Below the pieces are notes generated by a model that saw only the letters and a list, made by a program, of their open reading frames with translations, had not been told where the DNA came from and did not search any database. A program made the translations under genes and the position numbers. Of a stretch of 64,000 nt of DNA, positions 3,019 through 51,902 are shown in pieces. The first letter of the stretch is position 1; every line of letters begins with the position of its first letter. Origin of the DNA: Felis catus (Eukaryota); assembly GCF_018350175.1 (NCBI RefSeq), contig NC_058368.1, positions 63,676,001-63,740,000 on the forward strand, read 5' to 3'.

Positions 3019-4145
3019 ATGTGGATAACTTATTTTGAAACATTAATAAGGTAATCCTATCATTGCTTACTACATTAAGGTAGTTTTACAGATATGCAAA
3101 AAAATTAGTGATTTCCTATAGAAATAATTTGGGATTTTTGGTAACTATTCAAGTTATAACCAAAAATCATTAAAATTTAATGAGTAGGGATTTGGGAATT
3201 TAAGTTAGTTTTCATAATTTAATTTTAAATTCTAATAATTCTATTTATATGTAATAAATTATAATGCTTTCATTGATATTCTTGTGGAGAGTTAAAATAA
3301 GCCCCATACTGAATTATAACAGCGATTAGATTATCTTTTGTCACTTGGAACAAGGCCAAACTGCTTATTTACCTTTGTCATGTGCAGAAGACTTTCCATT
3401 TCTAGAATTGTGAGGCTGGCAGTGTTCCATAAGATGTGAAACGAATTCAGAAAAATTAATGTAAAACAGAGTCTTCACACAATGCAGATCTAGTGGGGTT
3501 CCTCTGCTTTTCGTTTAAGTTCCACAGTGTTCATGGTTGTCCTAGGAATTGGAGCTGAAAGCAACTTCTGGAATGTTTGAGAAAGAAATATAAATTCATG
3601 CCAAAGAATACTGCCAGTGCCTTTTTATAGGATAGCCTAGTTAAACATGAGAGACATCATAGGGATGGACAGAAATATTGTTTATTTTCCTCTCTTCCTT
3701 CTTTGTTAAAATTTTCATTTCTTGTCAGTGTGTAATGTCTCTTACATACTTTTGTCTATAACAGTGATGTTTAATATTGATTGATTTAAATTACTGTGTT
3801 CATTAGTTTCAGATGTACAATATAATGATTCAGCAATTCTGTACATTACCCAGTGCTCATTACAAGAGCGCTCCTTAATCCCCATCACCTATTTAACCCA
3901 TTCCCTTATTGCCCTCTCCTCTGGTAACCATTAGTTTTTTTTCTCTATAATTAAGAATCTGTTTCTTAATTTATCTCTATTTTCCCCCCATTGCTCCTTT
4001 ATTTTGTTTTTTAAATTCTAAATATGAGTGAAATTATATGCTATTTTTCTTTGACTTACTGCACTTAGTGTTATACACTCTAGCTCTATTCATGTCCTTG
4101 CAAATGGCAAGATTTCATTCTTTTTGTGACTGAATAATATTCCAT

Positions 4146-4146
<1 letters not shown>

Positions 4147-4180
<34 letters not shown>
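4147..4180. repeat. (TG)n microsatellite inside the L1 ORF2 end
   Basis: Direct reading. Confidence 0.97.
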
Positions 4181-4186
<6 letters not shown>

Positions 4187-5469
4187 CCACCTCTTTTTCC
4201 GTGGATACTTGGGCTGCTTCCACAATTTGGCTATCACAAATAACGCTGCTATAAACATAGGGATGCATCTATCTCTTTGAATTTGTATTTTTGTATACTT
4301 TGGTAAATACCCAGTAATGCAATTACTGGATTCTAGGGTAGTTCTATTTTTAACTTTTTGAGGAACCTCCATACTGTTTTCCAGAGTGGCTGCACCAGTT
4401 TGCATTCTCACCAACAGTGCACGAGGGTTCCTTTTCTCCGCATCCTCGCCAACACTTGTTTCTTGTGTTGTTGATGTCAGCTATTCTGACAGGTGTGAGG
4501 TGATATATCATTGTAGTTTTGATTTGTATTTCCCTAATGATGAGTGATGTTGAGCATCTTTTCACGTGTCCGTTGGTCATCTGTACGTCTTTTTTGGAGA
4601 AATGTCTGTTCATGTTTTCTGCCCATCTTTTTAATTGGGTATTTGTTTTTTGAATATTGAGCTGTATAAGTTATTTATTTTGGATAATAACCCCTTACCA
4701 GAGATGTCATTGGCAAATATCTCCTCCCATTCCACAGGTGGCCTTTTAGTTTTGTTGATTGTTTTCTTTGCTGTACAGAAGCTTTTTATTTTGATGTAGT
4801 CCCAATCGTTTATTTTTGCTTGTTTCCCTTGCTTCAGGAGACCTATCTAGAAAGAAGATTTCTTTCTGTTTATTCTTTGCACATATATTTTTGATATATG
4901 GTTACTATTAGTTTGTATATATCCTCTTCTGCATATAGCAGTCTGTATTAAATGGATGGTCATCTAAGTTTAACCCATTCTTTACTCCTCCCCACATTTT
5001 AGGTATATGTTGTCATATTTTACATCCTTTTATTTTGTGAGTTCCTTGAATGACTTTTACAGAGATATTTGTATTTACTGCATTTGTGTTTCCCACCATC
5101 ATACTGTCACTTTCCATCTCTGCTTTCCACTCAGAGTCCCTTTTATTACTTTTTGCAGGGTTGGTTTAGTGGTCCTAAACTCCTTTAGTTTTTGTTTGTC
5201 TGAGAAACTCTTTGCCTCTCCTTCTATTCTGAAGGACAACCTTGCTGTATAGAATATTCTTAGCTACAGATTTTTCTCATTCAGCAATCAGAATAGATCA
5301 TGCCACTCCTTTTTGGTTTGGAGAGTTTCTGCTGAAAAATCCCTTGCTAGACTTATGGGTTTTCCTTTGTATGTTAGTGTCTTCTTTTGTCTTGCTGCTT
5401 TTAAATTTTTTTCTTTATCACTATATTTTGCCAATTTAATACAGTATGTCCTGGTGTGGATATGCTTTT

Positions 5470-5473
5470 GATT

Positions 5474-5512
<39 letters not shown>

Positions 5513-5723
5513 TTTTTCATTTGAGAGAGAGGGAGAGAGAGAGAGGAGGGGAGAGAGGGTGTAGAGTCTGAAGTGGGGATTGAACTCATTCGAAGCAGGG
5601 CTCAAGCTCACCCAAAGTGGGGTTGAAGCTCACCCAATGTAGGCAGAACTCGAGATCACAAACTGTGAGATATGACCTGAGCTGAAGTTGGATGTTTAAC
5701 TGACTGAGCCACTCAGGCATTCC
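5470..5723 (-). mobile_element. CAN-SINE variant with a tandemly repeated 22-bp B-box segment, inserted in L1 ORF1
   Basis: (TTTA)n tail, (GA)n, head ctgagccactcaggca; TSD-like tgcttttg on both sides. Confidence 0.9.
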
Positions 5724-7416
5724 TGCTTTTGTTGATTTTATTTTGCTGGGGGTTCTCTGTGATTCCTAGCTCTGAAAATCTATTTCCTAACCCAGATTAA
5801 GGAGTTTTTCAGCTATTAGTTCTTCAAATAAATTTTCTGTCCCCTTTTCTCTCTCTTCTTCTTCTGGGACTCCTCTAATATGAATGTTATTACATTTGAT
5901 GGAGTCACTGACTTCGCTAAGTCTATTCTCATTTTGCATAATTCTTTTTTCTCTTTTGTTCAGTTTGATTACTTCATTACTCTCTCTTCTAGGTAATTAA
6001 TTCCTTCCTCTGCTTCTTTCAGCCTGCTCTTTGTTCCATCAAGTGTGTTTCTCATCTTGTTTATTGAATCATTTATCTCTGCTTAGTTATCTCTGTGTTA
6101 AGGTTCTCACTGATGTCTTACATTCTTTTCTCAAGTCCAGTGAATACCCTTATGATCATTGCTTCAAATACTCCATCAGGCATGTTACTTATATCTGTTT
6201 CACTTATATCTCTGGCTGTGGCTTTGTCAGTTTCTTTCATTTGGGATAAATTTCTCTGTTCTCATTTTATTTAAGTCTCTCTGCCTATTTCTCTGTGTTA
6301 GGGAAGTCAGCTGCATCTCCTGTTCTTTAGAAGAAAGGCAAAGAAAAGAGTCCTGTAGTGCCATGAAGTGTGGTGTCCCCTGTTACCTAGGGCCTGGTGC
6401 TTTCAGGAGTGTCCCTAGTGTGTGCTGTATGTACTCTGATGTTTTCTCCTGTCTGCTTTATCCTTCAGGCTACTCCTTTGCAAAGTATCTCTTTGTCTGT
6501 TGTGGGCATTGTTTGGTCCTTTGCCTGAATATGGTGCATTTTTACTAGGTATGCTCTGGTATATTTGTGAAATGAGACCTGTAACTACCACTGCAGGAAC
6601 AAAGCCTCTGCAAAGCTCCCATATTGGGGCTCGCAGTGTTGGCATGGGTTTGGGCTGGTCTTTTGGGAGAGGAGACCTGCTGTGCTGGGTCTGAGGCAAG
6701 TGTGACTGGAAAAGGTGGTTTCAGCAGAGTGTGGGGTCAGGGCTTGGTGTAAGCAAGTTAGGTAGTGAATGTCCCTGCTCTGCTGGTTCCTGAGGGTGGT
6801 CCTGTGCTCATCCTGAGGGATGGGGGGTGGAGATGATGCAGGCCAGTTCCTTTTTCCCTGAGAGGTCTCTCTGTGAACACTCTCTCTGAGATAAGCTTTA
6901 AGATGAGCAAATAACATCGCAACTCTGTCCCAGGCAGTCTTCAGATCACTGTTTCCATGCTGTATGTCTGCAGGCTCTTTGCCTGCCTTTTCTCAGAGAA
7001 TAGTGAAATGCCCTCTGGGCCCTATCCCAAGTTGGCCTGCTGAACCTTTCACTGCTGCTGGTTGCCAGAGTCATGAAATTCAGCCCCTCTTGTTTTCCAA
7101 GCCAATTGCTGTGGGGAGTCACTTTTGCTGTGTGTTCCTCTGTGTGTTAGTCTGTCTCTCACTTTTCTCCATGACTGTGGCTCCCTCCTCACAGCAGTGG
7201 CCATAATCCACTTCTCTCTCAAACTGTGTCTTAACATTTCTTGTCTTCTTCCATGAGGTTTCTTCTCTACCTTTAGGTATGGAGTTTGTTCTTGTAGTGT
7301 TCAGTCAGTTTCTAGGGTATTTAGGATGATTTGATAGTTATCTTGTAGTCATGGGACTAGCTGAGCCTGGGTTCCTCCTCCTCCACCACCATCTTCCAAC
7401 CTCTGATGTTTAACTT

Positions 7417-7642
7417 GTTTTTAATGTTTTTATTTAAATTCCAGTTAGTTAACATACAGTGTAATATTAGTTTCAGGTGTACAATTTAGTGATTCAACAC
7501 TCCCGTAACATACCTGGTGCTCATCACAAGTGCACTCCTTAATCTGCATCACCTCTTTCACTCATCCCTCCCCCACCTCCCCTATAGTAACTATCAATTT
7601 GTTCTCTATAGTTAAGAGTCTGTTTCTTGGTTTGTCTCTGTG
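7417..7642 (-). mobile_element. Short 5'-truncated LINE-1 (3'UTR only)
   Basis: T-rich tail, then agttagttaacatacagtgtaatattagtttcagg..., homologous to 3790-3970 and 27560-27770; TSD tgatgtttaactt at 7404-7416 and 7643-7655. Confidence 0.88.
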
Positions 7643-10600
7643 TGATGTTTAACTTTTATATATAGGTTTCCTCTATAGCTGTGCATCCTTTTGCTAATGA
7701 GATACCATCTTTTTGATGTAGAATAAAAGAAATGTAAAATAGGGATCACATAATTTAAAAATTCAAGGGAAAATTAAAAATAGGGGCAGTCTTTGAACAT
7801 TACAAAACCTGTAAAATGAAGAGTAAAAGGAATGAATGATTTCTCAGCTTCTTTGAAATTTACATCCCTTGTCTGATGTTCACCATCTTTCCAGTGAGCA
7901 AACTGAGGCCCAAATGTTTTATACCATGTTAGTCATAGAGCTAATTAGTCCACATCTTTGGACTCTTCGTTAAATACCTTGTCTCTGATGCCCCAAAGAT
8001 GAAATTTACCCTAGAAACGTATTGTGGCAGGGTGTGTTTCCTTATGTTACCATTCAGTTTAGTACAATGCCATTTTATGATTGATGTATTGTGGTCACAA
8101 TTAATACAAAACATTAAACTTTCATTTCAACACATGAAGATACTTAAAAATGAAATAAAAATAATTCAGATCACTTCAGGCAGATTTTTTAACACAAAAT
8201 AAATTTCTACTGCCCGCCCCCCCCCCCCCCAAACTGGAATTTTAGAAAGTGCAGACTAATCTATTCTTCAAAGAGAAATGGCATTAATTATCTTCTGCTC
8301 AAACACTAACCAAGGGCTTATTTTCTTTAGGTCATTTTTCCTGCTTTCTGCTTTACTTTAACCTGGGCTAGACCAGGTAGGAGTTGGTTCTTTGGGTGTC
8401 TACACATCTGGGAATCAACTGCTCTCTTGCCTAGTAAGGCCGAGGGTTACTTTCAGGTTTTCAAGGTGAGAACATGTATTCATCCTTTCTTGCAGGCATT
8501 TTCTTACCATGGTATGTTACTCTTAGTAAGAGTGAGATACATACATGAATATTTGTTTCATCAAATACCTGTTCCCATTTACTTAAAAAAATGTCAAAGC
8601 AATGGAAATTACATACAAGTCCACTGCATTATTTACTTATTAAAAAAATCACTCTTGTATTACTGATGAAAAAATGTTATTCTACCATTGCTGTCAAATT
8701 CAGGTATACAAATGTAGATATTGAAGTTTCTGTGGCATGGTACATTGAGTGTCAGAAACATGCTTACTAATTTTTATGTACATAATTAATGTCCTCTTGA
8801 TTTTGCAGCCGACTTTTCCTCTCCTTGTATGTGTATGGCTTGTTTCTGTATCTGGAGGAACTGGATGTCATTTACTTAGCAATAAAACAGTCCCTAGATT
8901 TAGAGGGTTTTACTTTTTTCCCTCAGAAATATAAATATTCCATCAGTGAAAATTTGTTCTAGAGCAACTTGAAGGGTTTAGTAAAGATAATTGAGCAATC
9001 AATAAAAACACTTAAAAATGTTCATACGTTAATATTTTACATCTCTTAATGAATTTTAAATGTTATTTGGTACTGAATATTGAAATCCAGTGATGGTGTA
9101 TACCATTCTTTAGGTTATATATAGCTTTGGGAACTTATTAAATAATAATTGGCCATATTAAATGCTAGCACCAGCTAAACCCATAATTCTGAAACCAGCT
9201 TAATTTCTGCCTTATTTCTTGAAACTGTGGTTATTACAGAACTGCAAACTTGAGAAATAACATTATTATTTACCTTTTCTACATTACCTCTTTCTAAAAA
9301 TCATCTGTGGCATCTTTACTGAGATATAGGATCAAGTGAGTAAGGGGATTGGACCACTGGGGAAAGGACCGATGGGATGCTTGTGCTCAGAAATTCAGTT
9401 TTTCAGTTGATATTGTCTCAATTTCTTTTAAATGTATGAACTACTTTGGATTTAATACAAATAAAGCTCTGGGTCCATTTTTCACTTTGTTGCAATTACT
9501 GTAGTATTTCTCCAACAAGAGTGTTGCACTTAGAAGTTAACAAAATTGGGCCTTTAATCAGCAATTTAGGTCAGGGAAAGTAAACAATATCAGTATATGG
9601 TTTACAGTATTTATTACATAAAAGAGACCTAAATTATTCTGCAGATCAGAAGAGCAACACCAAACATTTGGCCTTTATCCCTCAAGGTGCAAAAAGTGAA
9701 TTTTATCCAGCCAGAAGTAGGGTCTTCTGCAGGGGAGGTAATTAGCTGAGCAGAGAGATGGGGATGGTGAGATGGGAGGGCAAGGTAGTTTGAAGAAGTA
9801 TCGTCCTTCTAAAGTTTTTGTTTAAAGCTTCAAAATGCTATCCAGACTCGTTTGGAGGAGGTTCTGGTGTGGGGCCAGAGGGAGAGAAGATTTTTATACG
9901 TACGTGAGCTAAAAGACTGTACCTAAAATAGTCATCAGTTATCCCAACGTCTATAACACTCTTACGGGACTCATTCTGCTAGACATTGGGAAGAGAAAGA
10001 TGAATTTGATCTGTCTCGAGTTGAAGACCTTGCTGCTGGCTGAGAAGAACGGTGGCTAGACAAGGGGTAATCCCAGTCTGGCATGATTGTGCTGTAGCAT
10101 GAATGCTGACTGGTCTGTTGAAACAGAGAAGGCAACATGCTTTTCTTCCAAGATAGGGAAAAAAATGGGAATTGGAAGTGCAATATTGTCTCTGAACCTG
10201 GTTAGAGGAAGCTAGATTGAAAGCGTTAGAGCCCAGAAAGCCAGATTTAATTTTTGCTTTTAACTTAGCTTTGTGTGATCGACAAGGAGTTTTGCCTTCT
10301 AAAGGAGTGTGTCACATGAAGACAAGTCTCTGTCAGTGGCTATGGCTCGCCATTTCCGTAGCTGCTTTCTTTTGCTTGATTCAAGAGTTTTGGGAATAAT
10401 GAATCCAAGCTGATTTTATTATTACATTTGGGTATGAAATGTCGATGTAATTAGCATACATGGAGTGAAGGTTACTTTTTGGCTTACAGAATGAGACACT
10501 TTGTTTTGCTTATCAATACTGAGCTGGCCAGACAGCTTAGACATTAGTATATTTATTTTATTTATACTTCTCCTGCTTTCTTAAACATTGGGTTTCATGT

Positions 10601-27522: not shown

Positions 27523-27951
27523 TTTTTTTGGTATCTGTTTTTTAGAATTCTTTTTTCTTTAATTTAAATACAAGTTAGTTAACATATAGTGTAATAATGA
27601 TTTCAGGAATAGGATTTAGTGATTCATCACTTACATACAACACCCAGTGCTCATCCCAACAAGTGCCCTCCTTAATGTCCATCGCCTATTTAGCCCATCC
27701 CCCCACCGAACACCCCACCAGGATCCCTCAGTTCTCTGTATTTAAGAGTCTCTTATGGTTTGTCTCCCTTTCTGTTTTTATCTTATTTTTGCTTCGTAGG
27801 TTCATCTGTTTTGTTTCTTAAATTCCACATGTGAGTGAAATCATATGATATTTCTCAGACTGATTTATTTTGTTGAGCATAATACGCTCTAGTTCCATCC
27901 ACATTGCTGCAAATGGTAAGATTTCATTCTTTTTGATTGCCAAGTAATATT

Positions 27952-27993
<42 letters not shown>

Positions 27994-30525
27994 CATTTTC
28001 ATTATCCATTCAGCAGTCAATGGACATTGGGCTCTTTCCATACTTTGGCTACTGTCAGTAGTGCTGCTATAAACATTAGGGTGCATGTGCCTCTCTGAAT
28101 CAGCATTTTTGTATCCTTTGGGTAAATACCTAGTAGTGGAATTGCTGGGTTGTAGGCTAGTTCTATTTTCAATTGAGGAACCTCCATACTGTTTCCCAGA
28201 GTGGTTGCGCCAGGTTGCCTTCCCACCAGTGGTTCCAAAGGGTTCCTCTTTCTCTGTATCCTCACCAACATCTCTTGTTGCCTGAGTTGTTAATTTTAGC
28301 CACTCTGACAGGTGTGAAGTGGTATCTCATTGTGGTTTTGATTTGTATTTCCCTGAGGATGAGCAATGTTGAGCATTTTTTCATATGTCTGTTAGCCATC
28401 TGGATGTCTTCTTTGGAAAAGTATCTATTTGTGTCTTTTGCCAATTTATTCATTGGATTATTTGGGTTTTTTTGGGGGGGGGTGTTGAGTTTCATAAGTT
28501 GTTTATAGATTTTGGATACCAACCTTTTATCTGACATGTCATTTCCAATATCTTCTCCCATTCCATTGCTTGCCTTTTAGTTTTGCTGATTGTTTCCTTT
28601 GCTGTGCAGAAGCTTCTTATCCTGATGAGATCCCAACAGTTCAGTTTTGCTTTTGTTTCCCTTGTCTCCAGAGATATGTCTAGTAAGAAATTTCTTGGCT
28701 GAGGTCAAAGAGGTTGTTGGCTATATGTTTGTGGGTCCATTTCTGGGTTGTTTTCTCCCCTAAGATTTTGATGGCTTCCTGTCTTATGTTTTGGTCTTTC
28801 ATTCATTTTGAGTTTATTTTTGTGTGTGGTGTAAGAAAGTGGTCCGGGTTTCTTCTGCATCTCTGTCCAGTTTTCCCAACACCATTTGCTGAGGAGACCG
28901 TCTTTTTTCTATTGGATATTCTTTCCCACTTTGTCAAAGGTTAGTTGGCTATATGTTTGTGGATCCATTTCTGGGTTCTCTATTCTCTTCCATTGATCTA
29001 TGTTTGCTTTTCTTTTTCAACATTACTTTGGCTATTTGGGGTTTTTTCTGGTTCTGTACAAATTTTAGGAGTGTTTGTTCTAGTTCTGTGAAGAATGTGG
29101 GTGTTATTTTGATAGGGATTGCATTGAATATGTAGATTGTTTTGGATAGTATTGACACTTTAACAACATTTGTTCTTCCAAGCCATGAGCATGGAATGTT
29201 TTTTCCATTTGTTTGTGTTTTCTTCAATTTCTTTCATAAGCTTTGTATAGTTTTCAGTGTATAGATTTTTTACCTGTTTGGTTAGGTTTATTCCTAGGTA
29301 TTTTATAGTTTTTGGTGCAATTGTAAATGGGATTGATTCCTCGATTTCTCCTTCTCCTGCTTTATTATTGATGTATAGAAATGCAACCGATTTCTGTACA
29401 TTGATTTTATATTTTGTGACTTTGCTGAATTCACGTATCAGTTCTAGCATTTTTTTTTGGTGGAATCTATGGGTTTTCCACACAGAGTATGATGTCATCT
29501 GTGAAAAGTGAAAGTTTGACTTCCTCCCTGCCAGTTTGGGTGTTTTTAATTTCTTTTTGTTGTCTGATTGCTGAGGCTAGGACTTCTAATACTACATTAA
29601 ATAACAGTGGTGAGAGTGGACATCCTTGTCATGTTCCTGTCTTTAGGGGGAAAGCCCTCAGTTTTTCCTCAATGGGATGATATTAGCTGTGGGTCTTTTA
29701 TATATGGCCTTTATCATCTTGAGGTATGTTCCTTCTATCCCTACTTTCTTGAGGGTTTTTATCAAGAAAGGATGCTATATTTTATCAAATGCTTTTTGTA
29801 CATCTATTGAGAGGATCATGTGGTTCTTATCCTTTCTTTTGTTAATGTCATGTATTACATTGATTGATTTGTGGATATTGAACCAACCCTGCAGCCCAGG
29901 AATAAATCCCACTTGATCATGGTGAATAATCCCTTTATTTTATTGTTGGATTCAGTTTGCTAGTATCTTGTTGAGAATTTTTGCACCCATGTTTATCAGG
30001 GAAATTGGTCTGTAGTTCTTTTTAGTGGGGTCTTTGGCTGGTTTTGGAATCAAGGTAATGCTGGCCTTGTAGAATGAGCTCAGAAATTTTCCTTCCATTT
30101 CTATTTTTTGGAACAGCTTCAAAAGAATAGGTGTTAAATCTTCTTTAAATGTTTGGTAGAATTCTCCTGGAAAGCCACCTGGCCCTGGACTCTTGTTTGT
30201 TGGGAGATTTTTGATTACTGATACGATTTCTTGACTGGTCATGGGCCTGTTCAAATTTTCTATTTCTTCCTGTTTGAGTTTTGGTAGTTTATATGTTTCT
30301 AGGAATTTGTCCATTTCTTCCAGCTTGCCCAATTTGTTGGCATATAATTGGTCATAATATTCTCTTATTATTGTTTGTATTTCTGCAGTGTTGGTTGTGA
30401 TCTCTCCTCTTTCATTCATAATTTTATTTACTTGGGTCCTTTCCTTTTTATTTTTGATAAATCTGGCTAGGGGTTTATCAATTTTGTTAATTATTTCAAG
30501 GAACCAGCTCCTGGTTTCTCTGATC
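27523..30525 (-). mobile_element. 5'-truncated carnivore LINE-1 (ORF2 from upstream of the RT domain to the 3'UTR), disrupted
   Basis: ORFs 29952-30419 ([16 protein letters not shown]...NYRPISLIN), 29160-29498 (IKYLGINL), 28262-28561 and 28017-28271 are ORF2 pieces. Degenerate TSD agacatagaatatttta (27506-27522) / agacataaagtagttta (30526-30542). Confidence 0.93.
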
Positions 30526-30689
30526 AGACATAAAGTAGTTTACATTTGAACACTCATTAATAAATATTAAGTATCTGTTTATATGCTGATAAATGTTTTA
30601 GGCTAAGAAACTAAGCATAAAAGATCAAGAAAATATTAACAGACAATAATCCTGGGAAATCAAGTGAATTTAAGAATCTAATTTATTTT

Positions 30690-44015: not shown

Positions 44016-44293
44016 TATTTCATAACTAGAAACTTATGCCTCTTAATTCCCTTTATCCATTTTTCACTACCCCAATTCTTCTTTCCTTTTGCAACCACCG
44101 GTCTGTTCTCTTTATGAGTCTGGGTTTTGTTTTATTTTGTTTGTTTGTTTGTTGATTCCACAAGTCAGTATAATCATGAGTTATTTGTCTTTTTCTGTCT
44201 GCCGTATTTCACTTAACATAATACCCTCAATGTCCATCCGTGTTGTTGAAAGTGGCAAGATTTTATTCTTTTTTATGGCTGAGTAGTATTGCA

Positions 44294-44353
<60 letters not shown>

Positions 44354-45964
44354 CATGTCTTTATCCATTCATTTATGGATGGACACTTAAGTTGTTGCTA
44401 TATCTTGACTATTGTATATAATACTCCAGTGAACAGAGGGTTGCATATATCTCTTTGAATTAGTATTTTTGTTTTCTTCAGATAGATAACAGAAGTGGAA
44501 TTGCTGGATCAAATGATAGCTCTGTTTTTAATTTGCGGGGGAGAGCCCCTATACTCTTTCCCATAGTGGCTGTACCAATTTACATTCCTACCAACAGTGC
44601 ACAAGGGTTCCTTTTTTTCCATGTCTTCACCAACACTTGTCTTTTTGATAACAGCCATTCTGATATGTATATGGTGATATCCCATTGTGGTTTTGATTTT
44701 TATTTCCCTGATAATTAGTGTTGTTGAACCATTTTTCATGTGCCTGTTGGCCATCTTTATGTCTCTAGTGCAAAAATGTCCATCTCTGTCCTCTATTTTT
44801 AATCACTTTATTTTTTTTTTGTTATTGATTTGTATAGTTCCTGTATATATTTTGGATATTAATCTCCTATTGGATGAATTGTTTGCAAGTATCTTCCTCC
44901 ATTTAGTAGGTTGGTTTTTTGTTTTGTTGATGGCTTCCGTCACTGTGCAGAAGCTTTTTAGTTTGATGTATTCCCATTTATTTTTGCTTTTGTTTCCCTT
45001 CTGTTTGGAGTTGGATCCAAAAACCATTAAGACCAATGTCAAAGAGCTTACTGCCTGTGTTTTCTTCTAGGGTTTAATGGTTTCAGATCTAGCATTCAAG
45101 TGTTTAACCAATTTTGAGTTGATTTTCACATATAGTGTTAAGATCATGATCCAGTTTCATTCTTTTGCAAGTTACTGTCCAGTCTTTCCAACACCATTTA
45201 TTGAGATTATCCTTTCCCCATTGTATATTCTTGCCTCCTTTGTCATGAATTAATTGACTATATATGTACGTAGGTTCATTTTAGGGCTCTTTGTTCTATT
45301 CCATTGATCTTTGTGTCTTTTTTATGCTAGTATCATACAGTTTAGTATAGTTTGAAATCAGGGAGAATGTTACCTCCAGCTTTATTTTTCTTTCTCAGGG
45401 TCGTTTTGACTATTGGGGTCTTATGTGGTTCCAAACAAATTTTAGAAGTATTTGTACTAATTCTATGAAAAATGCCATTGGAATGTTGATAGAGATTGTA
45501 TTAAATCTGTAGATTGCTTTGGGTAGTATGGTCCTTTTAACAATATTAATTTTTTGAATTCAAATGGAATATTTTCCCATTTATTTGTGTCATCTTCAAT
45601 CCCTCTCTCAATGTCTATAATTTTCATTGTACAGGTGTTTTAACTACTTGGTTAAATTTATTCTTAGGTATTTTATTCTTTTTGATGTGGTTATAAATTG
45701 GATTATTTTCTTGATTTCTCTTTCTGATAGTTTGTTAGTGTAGAGAAGAAACAACACATTTTTTTGTATATTAATTTTATATCCTGCAACTTTCCTAAAT
45801 TAATTTATTAGTTCTCATTTTTTTTTGGTGGAGTCTTAAGGGCTTTTTCTATATAGCATCATGTCATCTGCAAATAGTAACAATGTTACTTCTTCGTTTC
45901 CAATTTGGATGCCTTTTATTTATTTTTTTCCCTAATTGCTCTGGCTAGGACTTCCAGTACTATT

Positions 45965-46003
<39 letters not shown>
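45965..46003. repeat. (TTG)13 microsatellite at the L1 tail/TSD boundary
   Basis: Direct reading. Confidence 0.95.
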
Positions 46004-46006
<3 letters not shown>

Positions 46007-46248
46007 TAGTATTTTTATTTTTTTTATTTTTTTTAAATTTATTGTCAAATTGCTTTCCATACAACACCCAGTGCTCATCCCAAAAGGTGCCCTCCTCGAT
46101 ACTCATCACCCACCCTCCCCTCCCTCCCACCCCCCCATCAGCCCTCAGTTTATTCTCAGTTTTTAAGAGTCTCTTATGCTTTGGCTCTCTCCCACTCTAA
46201 CCTCTTTTTTTTTTCCTTCCCCTCCCTCATGGGTTTCTGTTAAGTTTC

Positions 46249-47624
46249 TCAGGATCCACATAAGAGTGAAAACATAAGGTATCTGTCTTTCTCTGTATGG
46301 CTTATTTCACTTAGCATCACACTCTCCAGTTCCATCCACGTTGCTATAAAGGGCCATATTTCATTCTTTCTCATTACCATGTAGTACTCCATTGTGTATA
46401 TAAACCACAATTTCTTTATCCATTCATCAGTTGATGGACATTTAGGCTCTTTCCACCATTTGGCTATTGTTGAGAGTGCTGCTATAAACATTGGGGTACA
46501 AGTGGCCCTATGCATCAGTACTCCTGTATCCCTTGGGTAAATTCCTAGCAGTGCTACTGCTGGGCCATAGGGTAGGTCTGGGTCATAGGGTAGGTCTGCC
46601 CTGATCTTTATTATTTCTCTTCTTCTGGTGGGTTTGGGGTGTCTTTGCTGTTCTGCTTCTATTTCCTTTAGGTGTGCTGTTAGATTTTGTATTTGGGATT
46701 TTTCTTGTTTCTTGAGATAGGCCTGGATTGCAATGTATTTTCCTCTCAGGACTGCTTTCACTGCATCCCAAAGCGTTTGGATTGTTGTATTTTCATTTTC
46801 GTTTGTTTCCATATATTTTTTAATTTCTTCTCTAATTGCCTGGTTGACCCATTCATTCTTTAGTAGGGTGTTCTTTAACCTCCATGCTTTTGGAGGTTTT
46901 CCAGACTTTTTCCTGTGGTTGATTTCAAGCTTCCTAGCATTGTGGTATGAAAGTATGCATGGTATGATTTCAATTCTTGTATACTTATGAAGGGCTGGTT
47001 TGTGACCCAGAATGTGATCTATCTTGGAGAATGTTCCATGTGCACTCGAGAAGATATATTCTGTTCCTTTGGGATTCAGAGTTCTAAATATATCTGTCAA
47101 GTCCATCTGATCTAATGTCTCATTCAGGGCCCTTGTTTCTTTATTGACCGTGTGTCTAGATGATCTATCCATTTCTGTAAGTGGAGTGTTAAAGTCCCCT
47201 GCAATTACCACATTCTTATCAATAAGGTTGCTTATGTTTGTGAGTAATTGTTTTATATATTTGGGGGCTCCTGTATTTGGCACATAGACATTTATAATTG
47301 TTAGCTCTTCCTGATGGATAGACCCTGTGATTATTATATAATGCCCTTCTTCATCTCTTGTTACAGCCTTTAATTTAAAGTCTAGTTTGTCTAATATGAG
47401 TATGGCTACTGCAGCTCTCTTTTGACTTCCAGTAGCATGATAAATAGTTTCCATCCCCTCACTTTCAATCTGAAGGTGTCCTCAGGTCTAAAATGAGTCT
47501 CTTGTAGACAGCAAATAGATGGGTCTTGTTTTTGTATCCATTCTGATACCCTGTGTCTTTTGGTTGGCGCATTTAGTCCATTTACGTTCAGAGTTATTAT
47601 AGAAAGATACGGGTTTAGAATCAT
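46249..47624 (-). pseudogene. L1 ORF2 derivative: APE endonuclease domain fused in frame to the ORF2 C-terminal ~110 aa; one frameshift near 47450
   Basis: MILNPYLSIITLNVNGLN start at 47624; motifs LQETH, IAGDFNTPL and SKIDHILGH; ...RRREIIKIRA|DLPYDPDLPYGPAVALLGIYP...LLCGS*. There is no RT FADD motif and no CCHC knuckle. Confidence 0.9.
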
Positions 47625-47674
47625 TGTGATGTCTGTAGGTTTTATGCTTGTAGTGATGTCTCTGGTACTTTGTC

Positions 47675-48602
47675 TCACAGGATCCCCCTTAGGATCTCTT
47701 GTAGGGCTGGTTTAGTGGTAACGAATTCCTTCAGTTTTTGTTTGTTTGGGAAGACCTTTATCTCTCCTTCTATTCTAAATGACAGACTTGCTGGATAAAG
47801 GATTCTCGGCTGCATATTTTTTCTGTTCATCACATGGAAGATTTCCTGCCATTCCTTTCTGGCCTGCCAAGTTTCAGTAGAGAGATGGGTCACGAGTCTT
47901 ATAGGTCTCCCTTTATATGTTAGAGCACGTTTATCCCTAGCTGCTTTCAGAATTTTCTCTTTATCCTTGTATTTTGCCAGTTTCACTATGATATGTCGTG
48001 CAGATTGATTCAGGTTACGTCTGAAGGGAGTTCTCTGTGCCTCTTGGATTTCAATGCCTTTTTCCTTCCCCAGATCAGGGAAGTTCTCAGCTATTATTTC
48101 TTCAAGTACACCTTCAGCACCTTTCCCTCTCTCTTCCTCCTCTGGAATACCAATTATGCGTAGATTATTTCTCTTTAGTGCATCACTTAGTTCCCTAATT
48201 TTCCCCTCATACTCCTGGATTTTTTTATCTTTTTCTCAGCTTCCTCTTTTTCCATAATTTTATCTTCTAGTTCACCTATTCTCTCCTCTGCCTCTTCAAT
48301 CCGAGCCATGGTCAAGTTCACCTAGTTTCTCCTCTGCCTCTTCAATCCGAGCTGTGGTCATCTCCATTTTATTTTGCAGCTCATTTGTAGCATTTTTTAG
48401 CTCCTCCTGACTGTTCCTTAGTCCCTTGATCTCTGTAGCAACAGATTCTCTGTTGTCGTCTATACTGTTTTCAAGCCCAGCGATTAATTTTATGACTATT
48501 ATTCTAAATTCACTTTCTGTTATATTGTTTAAATCCTTTTTGATCAGTAGCTGTCGTTATTTCCTGGAGATTCTTTTGAGGGGAATTCTTCCGTTTGGTC
48601 AT
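47675..48602 (-). pseudogene. L1 ORF1 (RNA-binding chaperone), frameshifted
   Basis: Start MTKRKNSPQKNLQEITTA at 48602; C-terminus ...QPRILYPASLSFRIEGEIKVFPNKQKLKEFVTTKPALQEILRGIL*. A 46-bp tandem duplication and small indels break the frame. Confidence 0.9.
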
Positions 48603-49506
48603 TTTGGGTAGTCCCTGGAGTGGTGTGGAACTGCGGAGCACTTCCCCTGTGCTGTCTTGAATAACTTTGCGTTGGTGGACAGGCCGCAGTCAGACCTGAT
48701 GTCTGCCCCAGCCCACCGCTGGGGCCACAGTCAGACTGGTGTGTGCCTTTTCTTCCCCTCTCCTAGGGGTGGGATTCACTGTGGGGTGGCATGGCCCGTC
48801 TGGGCTACTTGCACAATGCCAGGCTTGTGGTGCTGGAGATCTGGCATATTAGCTGGGGTGGATTGGCAAGGTGCAGAGGGGTGGGAGGGGCAGGCTCAGC
48901 TAGCTTATCCTTAGGTGATCGGCTTTGGGAGGGGCCCTGAGGCTCCGGAAGGGAGTCAGACCCGCCACAGGAGGGATGGATCCGCAGAAGCACAGTGTTG
49001 GGTATTGGCTCGGTGCAAGCAAGTTCCCTGGCAGGAACTGGTTCCCTTTGGGATTTTGGCTGGGGGATAGGCGAGGGAGATGGTGCTGGCGAGCGCCTTT
49101 GTTCCCCGCCAAGCTGAGCTCTGTCGTCTGGGGCTCAGCAACTCCCTCCTGTTGTCCTCCAGCCCTCCCGCTCTCCGAGCAGAGCTGTTAATTTATAACC
49201 TTCCAGATGTTAAGTCCCGCTTGCTGTCAGAACATACTCCGTCCAGCCCCTCCACTTTTGCAAGCCAGACTCGGGGGCTCTGCTTGGCCGGCGGGCTGCC
49301 CCTCCGCCCGGGCTCCCTCCTGCCAGTCTGTGGAGCGCGCACCGCCTCTCTGCCCTTCCTACCCTCTTCCATGGGCCTCTCGTCTATGCTTGGCTCCAGA
49401 GAATCCATTCTGCTAGTCTTCTGGACGTTTTCTGGGTTATTTAGGCAGGTGTAGGTGGAATCTAAGTGATCAGCAGGACGCGGTGAGCCCAGCGTTCTCC
49501 TAAGCC
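48603..49506 (-). promoter_or_regulatory. L1 5'UTR / internal Pol II promoter, GC- and CpG-rich
   Basis: The only extended GC-rich segment with many CpGs in the window; lies directly upstream of ORF1. Confidence 0.8.
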
Positions 49507-50652
49507 CTTCCAGTACTATTTTGAATAAAAATGGGGATTGTGGGCATTGTTACCTTGTTCCTGATCTTAGAGGAAAAGCTTTCAGATTTCACTACTGAAT
49601 ATGATGTTATCTGTGGGTTTGTCATATATAATCATAATATATTGAGGTATGTTCTCTCTGTACCCCCTTTGTTGAGAGTTCTTGTCATAAATGGATATTG
49701 AACTTTGTCAGATGCTTTTTCTGCATTTTTGATATGATCACATGATTTTTATCTTTTATTTTGTTAATATGGTCATCACACTGATTGATTTGTGGATGTT
49801 GCATCATCCTTGCATCCCTGGAATAAATTCCACTTGATTGATCATGGTGTATGACCATGACCTTTAAATGTATTGTTGAATTCAGTTTGCTAATATCTTG
49901 TTGAGGATTTTTGCATCTGTCTTCACCAGGAATATTGGCCTATAATTATATTTTTTGTAGTGTCTTTGTCTGGTTTTTGTATCAGGGTAATATTAGCCTC
50001 ATAAAATGTGTTTGGAAGCTTTTCTTCTTCATTTTTTTTTTTTTTTTATGAAGAGTTTGAGAAAGATAGTTATATAATCTTTGGATGTTTGGTAGAATTC
50101 ATCAGTGAAGCCCTTTGGTCCTGGACGAAAGTTTTTGATTACTGACTCAGTCTCCTTACTGGTGATTGGTCTATTCAGATTCTCTATTTCTTCATGATTC
50201 AGCCTTAGATGGTAAATTTCTAGGAATTTATCCATTTCTTCTAGGTTGTCTGATTTGTTGGCAAATTATTCATAGTAGTCTTTCAATGATTTATTTCTAT
50301 TTCTGTGCTGTTATGTCTTCTCTTTAATATGTTTTTATTTATTTGAGCCCTCTCTTTGCTGCCTTGATGAGTCCAGCTAAAAGTTTGTCAATTTTATTTA
50401 TCTTTACAAAAAATCATCTCTCAGTTTCATTGATCTTTTCTATTGTCTTTTTAGTTTCTATTTCATTTATTTCCACTGTGTTCTTTATTTCCTTCCTTCT
50501 ACTATCTTTGGGCAGTGTATATTCTTCTCTTTCTAGTTCATTTAGGTGTAAAGTTAAGTTTTTTATTTGAGATAGGCCTGTAGTGCTTTGTATTTTTCTC
50601 TTAAAACCATTTTTTGCTGCATTGCATAGATTTTGGTATGTTATTTGTAGGT

Positions 50653-50869
50653 TTTTAAAAAAATTTTTTTCTTAACATTTATTCATTTTTTGAGAGACAG
50701 AGACAGCATAGGGGAGGGACAGAGAGAGAGGGAAACATTGAATCTGAAGCAGGCTCTAGGCTCTGAGCTATCAGCACAGAGCCCAACGCAGGGCTAAAAC
50801 CCACAAACTGCGAGATCATGACCTGAGCCAAATTTTAATGCTTAACCGACTGAACCACCCAGGTGCCCC
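50653..50869 (-). mobile_element. CAN-SINE inside L1 ORF2
   Basis: SINE body; TSD-like tgtaggtttt / tgtagggtttt. Confidence 0.93.
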
Positions 50870-51902
50870 TGTAGGGTTTTTTTTTTTTTTAATTTATCCT
50901 TTGATTTCTTCTATGACCCAATAGTTGTTCAGTAACATGTTGTTTAATGTCCATGTATTTGTTTTTCCAGTTTTCTTCTTGTACCTGATTTCATGCCGTA
51001 GTGGTTAGAAAAAGTGCTTGATATGACTTTGATCTTGGATTTATTGAGACTTGTTTTATAGTGCAAAATGTGACCTCTCCTGGAGAATGTTCTGTGGCAC
51101 TTGAGAAGAATGTGTATTCTGCTTTTGGATGGAATGTTTGTATATATATGGTCCATCTGATCTGATGTGTCATTTAAAGCCAGTGTTTCCATATTGGTTT
51201 TCCGTCTGGATGATGTAGTAAGTGGGATGTTAAAATTCCTACTATATTGTATTGCTGTCAGTTTTTCCCTTTTTTTCATGTTAATACTTGCTTTATATAT
51301 TTTGGTGATTTTATGTTTAGTCCATATATATTTATAAATGTTATATCTTTATTGGATTGACTCTTTTATCATTATGTAGTATCCCTCTTCATCTTTTGTT
51401 ACAGCTTTTGTTTTAAAGTTAATTTTGTATGATACAAGTTTAGCTACACCAGCTTTCTTTTTGTCTCCATTTGCATGGTATATATTTTTCCATACCTTTA
51501 CTTTCAGTCTGTGTGTTTCCTTATACCTGAAGCAAGTCTTGGGTAGAAAGTATATAGATTTATGTTGTTTTTTTAATCCATTTAGTCATTCTGTGTCTTT
51601 TGATTGGAGAATTTAGTCCATTTACCTTTAAAGTCAACATTGATTAGGTATATATTTATTGCTATTTTGTCAATTATTTTCTGGCTGTTTCTCTAGTTCC
51701 TTTCTGTCCCTTTCTTCTTTTCCTGTGGTTTGATGATTTCCTTTAGTGTTATGTTTAGATTCCTTTCTTATTTTGTGTGTGTGTATTCACTGTAAGTTTT
51801 TGCTTTGTGGTTACCATTAGGTTCACACATATCATCCTATGTATATAATAGTCTATTTTAAGTTGTTGGAACTTAGATTTGAACACATATAATCTGCATT
51901 TT

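Follow-up and report, generated by a model that had tools for sequence, protein, structure and literature searches.

A 5'-complete L1 with the layout of a HAL1 element, probably a single copy that has lost its middle

HAL1 elements are non-autonomous L1 derivatives that encode ORF1p only, and they have arisen independently several times in mammals (PMC5753468, in its available part). The rat family RNHAL1 comprises about 7500 copies, and over its 5' 2600 bases it shares 98% identity with active L1, as far as the accessible portion of PMC2241872 goes, and young HAL1s are known from marmoset and guinea pig (PMC3183009, available in part). For the dog, the portion available of a 2026 review counts 83 L1 subfamilies, HAL1 included as a mammal-wide type, and does not name a carnivore-specific one there (PMC13756887). 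No carnivore-specific HAL1 was found in the literature searched, a scope that leaves Bao and Jurka 2010, Repbase and Dfam outside and does not establish absence from print; the supplements of PMC6230240 contained neither HAL1 nor L1_Carn. Two other kinds of object come close to the element described below: SpIREs, which according to the accessible part of PMC5860796 are intra-5'UTR or 5'UTR/ORF1 splices at donor/acceptor sites, and internally deleted 5'-complete L1s, produced by aberrant reverse transcription or by later deletion. For non-inverted multi-kb internal deletions, no rate is given in the available parts of PMC2912911, PMC6466679, PMC13192797, PMC6230240 and 10.1101/2024.08.27.596794.

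The element described here lies at positions 3775-7403 on the minus strand of the window (the whole 64-kb stretch of DNA that was analysed), and is a real structure and a known kind of object. It shares with internally deleted 5'-complete L1s both ends, one duplication and one short-homology join, as well as the lack of any sign of further copies, but its deletion removes ORF2 from before its start and leaves ORF1 whole, thereby mimicking a HAL1. With the HAL1 families (rat RNHAL1, guinea-pig HAL1_Cpo and marmoset HAL1-1C_Cja; PMC2241872, PMC3183009 and PMC5753468, each available in part) it has in common the L1 5'UTR and ORF1, the absence of endonuclease (EN) and reverse transcriptase (RT), the L1 3' end and tail and an L1-type target duplication; one trait of a HAL1, ORF1 present and the ORF2 endonuclease and RT absent, is found at this locus. 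It differs from these families in that no second copy of its junction was found, in that its ORF2 remnant of 282 codons is still well conserved, and in that there is no evidence of ORF1 selection after the loss of ORF2, a single copy yielding no selection estimate. Like the SpIREs, it is a 5'-complete L1 insertion without an internal piece, but the join here is between spacer and ORF2. On balance, the locus probably represents one dead copy from which about 3.1 kb has been lost internally, a loss private to that copy.

The boundaries of the element are set by the 10-mer TGATGTTTAA, which occurs three times on the plus strand of the window (3765, 7404 and 7643), always at this locus, and is absent from the minus strand. 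The copies at 3765-3774 and 7404-7413 flank the element as its target-site duplication on the 3' and the 5' side, respectively, while the third belongs to an adjoining short L1 3' fragment. One 5'-complete L1 of 3629 bp, or about 3.37 kb without its SINE, is therefore enclosed by a single duplication, in agreement with the first-pass annotation, which had proposed one duplication around a unit of about 3.4 kb. ORF1 and ORF2 homology, a 3' A-rich tail and the target-site duplication all mark the unit as an L1 insertion. Its 3'UTR and decayed tail (3775-4010, minus strand) can be aligned with the 3' end of the L1 at 27.5 kb and with that of the fragment at 7417-7642. The single duplication fits a middle that was missing at insertion and one that was lost later alike. 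A short L1 nested in an older, longer one was ruled out, since no ORF2 remainder lies to the left of 3765. Of the words sampled from 3020-7400, 68-74% recur in twenty contig runs of a single organism; the locus is thus present in a close relative, word sharing being silent on the junction.

The adjoining fragment (7417-7642, minus strand) is a separate 5'-truncated L1 3' end that shares the target site; TGATGTTTAACTT lies on either side of it, at 7404-7416 and 7643-7655, so that the 5'-side duplication of the long element is also part of a 13-bp duplication. The target duplication is threefold (3765-3774, 7404-7416 and 7643-7655), with the 226-bp fragment and the long element head to tail in one site, and both duplications share their last base on the 5'-junction side. 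Between the fragment and the 3' end of the long element itself, 23% of bases are different, and from the sequence fragment and element are likely to be two insertions into one target site.

For the 5' half of the element, the earlier description of a complete 5' end, 5'UTR and ORF1 holds. The 5'UTR (6266-7403, minus strand) is 1.1 kb long, has a GC content of 48% and is almost devoid of CpG (observed/expected 0.03); at 7395-7386, 9 nt inside the 5' end, it carries the YY1-like motif AAGATGGTGG, which we take to be a CpG-decayed YY1 site. ORF1 (about 5128 to 6265, minus strand) is full length but dead. Pfam recognizes Transposase_22 and Tnp_22_dsRBD in it, and from an ATG at 6265 it aligns with residues 4-297 of a 297-aa ORF1p; with P0003 as reference, it bears five stops and three frameshifts in 285 aligned codons. 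It is split by a later insertion at about 5480-5723 (minus strand), a SINE that matches many SINE copies in the window and whose family name, of carnivore type, we presume. The target duplication of this SINE, as read from the sequence, is imperfect (5463-5479 and 5724-5743), and its tRNA-like part contains three copies of a 22-bp unit (5571-5637).

Downstream of ORF1, about 270 nt of the long inter-ORF spacer are retained (4858-5128, minus strand), which align with 51772-51888 and with protein P0145. Over 4978-4859 versus 51888-51772, ungapped identity is 73% and the score is 79, against a best of 67 in 200 shuffles, which bears out the spacer alignment previously proposed with the L1 at 51755-51890. 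At 4857/4858 the spacer is joined to ORF2 from about residue 994 onward, a position that follows from matches of the remnant to residues 1005-1065 and 1177-1228 of human ORF2p. The remnant (4011-4857, minus strand) is frameshifted, contains only the C-terminal part of ORF2, about residues 994-1275, and includes a (TG)n repeat at 4147-4180; the join at about 4857 was thus correctly placed by the first-pass annotation, and the last 270 or so codons that it allowed for are in fact about 282. It had also held that alignment with an L1 at 28670-28690 stops at the join, and the ORF2 side does align with the L1 at 27.5-30.5 kb only as far as 4864/28696, that is, 7 nt into the spacer side. The junction (4857-4864, minus strand) displays a short imperfect microhomology. 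In P0145, the last spacer residues are the same as in our element, after which the protein continues as spacer and not as ORF2, and the codon before the join in typical ORF2 encodes Asn; from these two observations the number of shared bases lies between 1 and 7, a range that only a consensus would narrow. With the older L1 as a ruler, about 3.1 kb is estimated to be missing and the break to fall within the spacer, about 100 nt before the start of ORF2, sparing the promoter, ORF1 and the 3' end. The claim that both endonuclease and RT are gone stands as well: neither Pfam domain was found in the three sense frames of 4432-7403 and 3777-4325, and the same scan, as a positive control, detected EN and RVT_1 in the L1s at 46-49.5 kb and 27.5-30.5 kb, respectively. 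The stretch 4326-4431, outside the scan, sits between two C-terminal ORF2 matches.

Both halves of the element look old. In the 5' half, CpG observed/expected is 0.00-0.07, and next to the join ORF2 differs from the 28-kb L1 at 19% of aligned bases. Identity to a cat ORF1p is 42-59%, compared with 93% for the 46-49.5 kb L1, so the element belongs to an older carnivore-type lineage. P0145 and the ORF2 fragments assign the two halves alike to carnivore-type L1s.

Further copies of the junction were sought in several samples. In the 64-kb window the only match at up to three mismatches was the junction itself. Among the best 120 of 135 ORF2 fragments, nearly all from ENA contigs (public metagenome contigs), 100 were scorable, in that they extend upstream of the breakpoint by 10 residues or more; of these 100, 93 read as normal ORF2 there, and none has spacer-like sequence (best score 22, against 63 for the element itself). 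Since only proteins with an open frame of at least 112 residues enter this sample, it is weighted towards young copies, and copies of the junction, which likely start downstream, would tend to fall among the 20 unscorable fragments. In at least three of the 100 scorable fragments (P0075, P0083 and P0129), out-of-order L1 sequence precedes the breakpoint region, a sign that further private rearrangements may have occurred close to this part of ORF2. An exact junction pattern of 20 letters gave seven matches in metagenomes, none of them in L1 sequence; run without a positive control, this result is close to uninformative. In the same scan, a 64% match of L003 to the ORF1 DNA was taken as chance, since the sequence reads as a microbial gene region. 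Scans of viral and prokaryote contig proteins with the element's own peptide returned nothing, the patterns carrying its private changes, and a scan based on the conserved alignment returned no viral locus and one locus in a prokaryote record, a stray L1 piece of 302 bp (L008). This piece starts only three bases before the breakpoint, in normal ORF2, and is too short upstream to count; at 1-302 of L008, the carnivore-type L1 ORF2 fragment makes up the whole contig in a Streptomyces assembly and is likely contamination.

A scan with the reading frame that spans the junction found two proteins, both with normal ORF2 upstream. From the spacer side, a full scan with a 34-residue spacer frame also produced two matches, P0144 and P0145. 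P0144 is near-identical to the spacer (three differences in 70 residues) and ends about 50 nt before the join, and is likely, by this similarity, an orthologue of the element's own spacer. P0145 is the sole paralogue that crosses the breakpoint from this side, and it lacks the junction (0/1). Taken together, these indirect samples, which are low in power and include neither a whole carnivore genome nor read depth, lean against a large family.

The state of the ORF2 remnant is relevant to the history of the element, since a long-lived ORF1-only master should let it rot. On the junction side there are no stops and two frameshifts in 140 codons, with 74% identity to P0048, while the ordinary L1 at 28 kb has one stop and one frameshift in 147 codons and 78% identity in the same comparison. 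The far end is more decayed, with five lesions in 81 codons against two in 82 in the 28-kb L1 (reference P0132), the count over the remnant omitting 4326-4431. Overall, the remnant is no more broken than ORF1, with its eight lesions in 285 codons, and hence there is no sign of a long ORF1-only history. By analogy with the rat case, a young HAL1 would show the same pattern of decay.

The window contains another L1 without its centre, at about 45964-49510, and the first-pass annotation had taken the presence of two such elements as support for a family. That argument fails, and a common origin was rejected: the neighbour is of a younger subfamily, a felid-type L1 lying within an older one, it retains the endonuclease and lacks RT, its spacer is short, and its junction is a different one, in which post-endonuclease ORF2 meets the C-terminus at about 46598, where 18 nt are duplicated in tandem. 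The AAGATGG motif is missing from its first bases, and it may be slightly 5'-truncated. Two centre-deleted L1s within 46 kb are a coincidence that is still worth a genome-wide count. Within the L1 at 27.5-30.5 kb, a stretch of about 30-40 nt is duplicated (28690-28960), and comparison with the older L1 shows a further gap near 28960-29030. The five L1 pieces examined (3775-7403, 7417-7642, 27536-30527, 44042-51900 and 45964-49510) all lie on the minus strand, as would be expected inside an intron of a putative plus-strand gene.

How the middle of the element came to be missing can be read in more than one way. The probable course, a private deletion in a single copy, is favoured because no second junction copy occurs in the window, the ORF2 fragments or P0145, because the junction-side remnant is as well kept as the ordinary 28-kb L1, because the neighbour at 46-49.5 kb shows an unrelated internal deletion close by, and because the literature gave no carnivore-specific HAL1. 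We infer that an ordinary full-length L1 RNA was the source; its insertion by target-primed reverse transcription is suggested by the tail and the duplication. RT would then likely have stopped some 1.1 kb from the 3' end and, with a few matching bases as a foothold, continued in the spacer. Loss of the middle after insertion would have the same appearance, and we place it only slightly behind the RT jump. The copy was unable to make ORF2p, and its ORF1 is by now dead as well. Against this reading, the layout is exactly that of a HAL1, all the negative junction tests are weak, and at its far end the remnant has decayed further than the 28-kb match. Moreover, a rough sum, with published totals for mid-size deletions from the available part of 10.1101/081307 and an assumed size share, puts a post-insertion deletion of about 3 kb at only 0.3-1% per full-length copy, so that any one copy would seldom suffer such an accident and a family would yield copies of this kind in far greater number.

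It is mainly this low deletion rate that keeps alive, as a less likely alternative, an old HAL1-like carnivore family, amplified, extinct and so far undescribed, of a 3.4-kb ORF1-only L1 derivative with the spacer joined to ORF2 at about residue 994. Under such a scenario, which we hold to be possible and somewhat unlikely, a deleted master would have kept the promoter and ORF1, and its RNA would have been copied in trans by the ORF2p of full-length L1s; the family might, just as tentatively, have been overlooked since each half matches an ordinary L1 piece in repeat annotation. The retention of promoter, whole ORF1, 3'UTR and tail together with the loss of ORF2 from before its start fits this reading, as do the repeated origins of HAL1s in mammals (PMC5753468, in part) and the example of rat RNHAL1, in that a young HAL1 need not show extra decay (PMC2241872, likewise in part). 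It is opposed by the good state of the remnant beside the junction, by the absence of any report in the open literature searched (most subscription papers, Repbase and Dfam being outside that scope) and by the junction counts: none in the 100 scorable fragments (from the best 120 of 135), none in the single spacer paralogue and none in the seven metagenome matches. The HAL1-like layout proposed in the first-pass annotation is thus confirmed, while the family that it suggested is neither shown nor refuted, these samples being of low power. An improbable alternative is a chimera formed in one insertion, in which RT switched from one L1 RNA, the source of the 3' 1.1 kb, to a second, possibly of another subfamily, that supplied the part from the spacer to the 5' end. 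The single target duplication and the short junction homology suit a chimera as well as a jump on one RNA, whereas the age of both halves and their common placement among carnivore-type L1s speak against it. Least probable is a retrocopy of a spliced L1 RNA of the SpIRE type, an origin that could repeat itself at other loci with no master element involved. Retrotransposition of spliced L1 RNAs does occur in human (accessible part of PMC5860796), but in the unbroken spacer the breakpoint is followed by C in P0145 (next residue Q) and by T in the 51.8-kb L1, so that there is no GT donor, and the 93 of 100 scorable fragments (best 120 of 135) with normal ORF2 upstream mostly end there in the Asn codon, which leaves no AG acceptor at the join. 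In these two unbroken relatives, which do not amount to a subfamily consensus, the splice donor of a SpIRE is lacking at the spacer breakpoint, and splicing of that kind appears unlikely there.

As a single deleted copy, the element is ordinary L1 debris. If its junction recurs, Carnivora would join the lineages with independent ORF1-only parasites of L1, and the family would have been caught at an early stage, before its ORF2 remnant was broken up; the mechanism would be one already known, and the copies could serve as markers for early carnivore branching.
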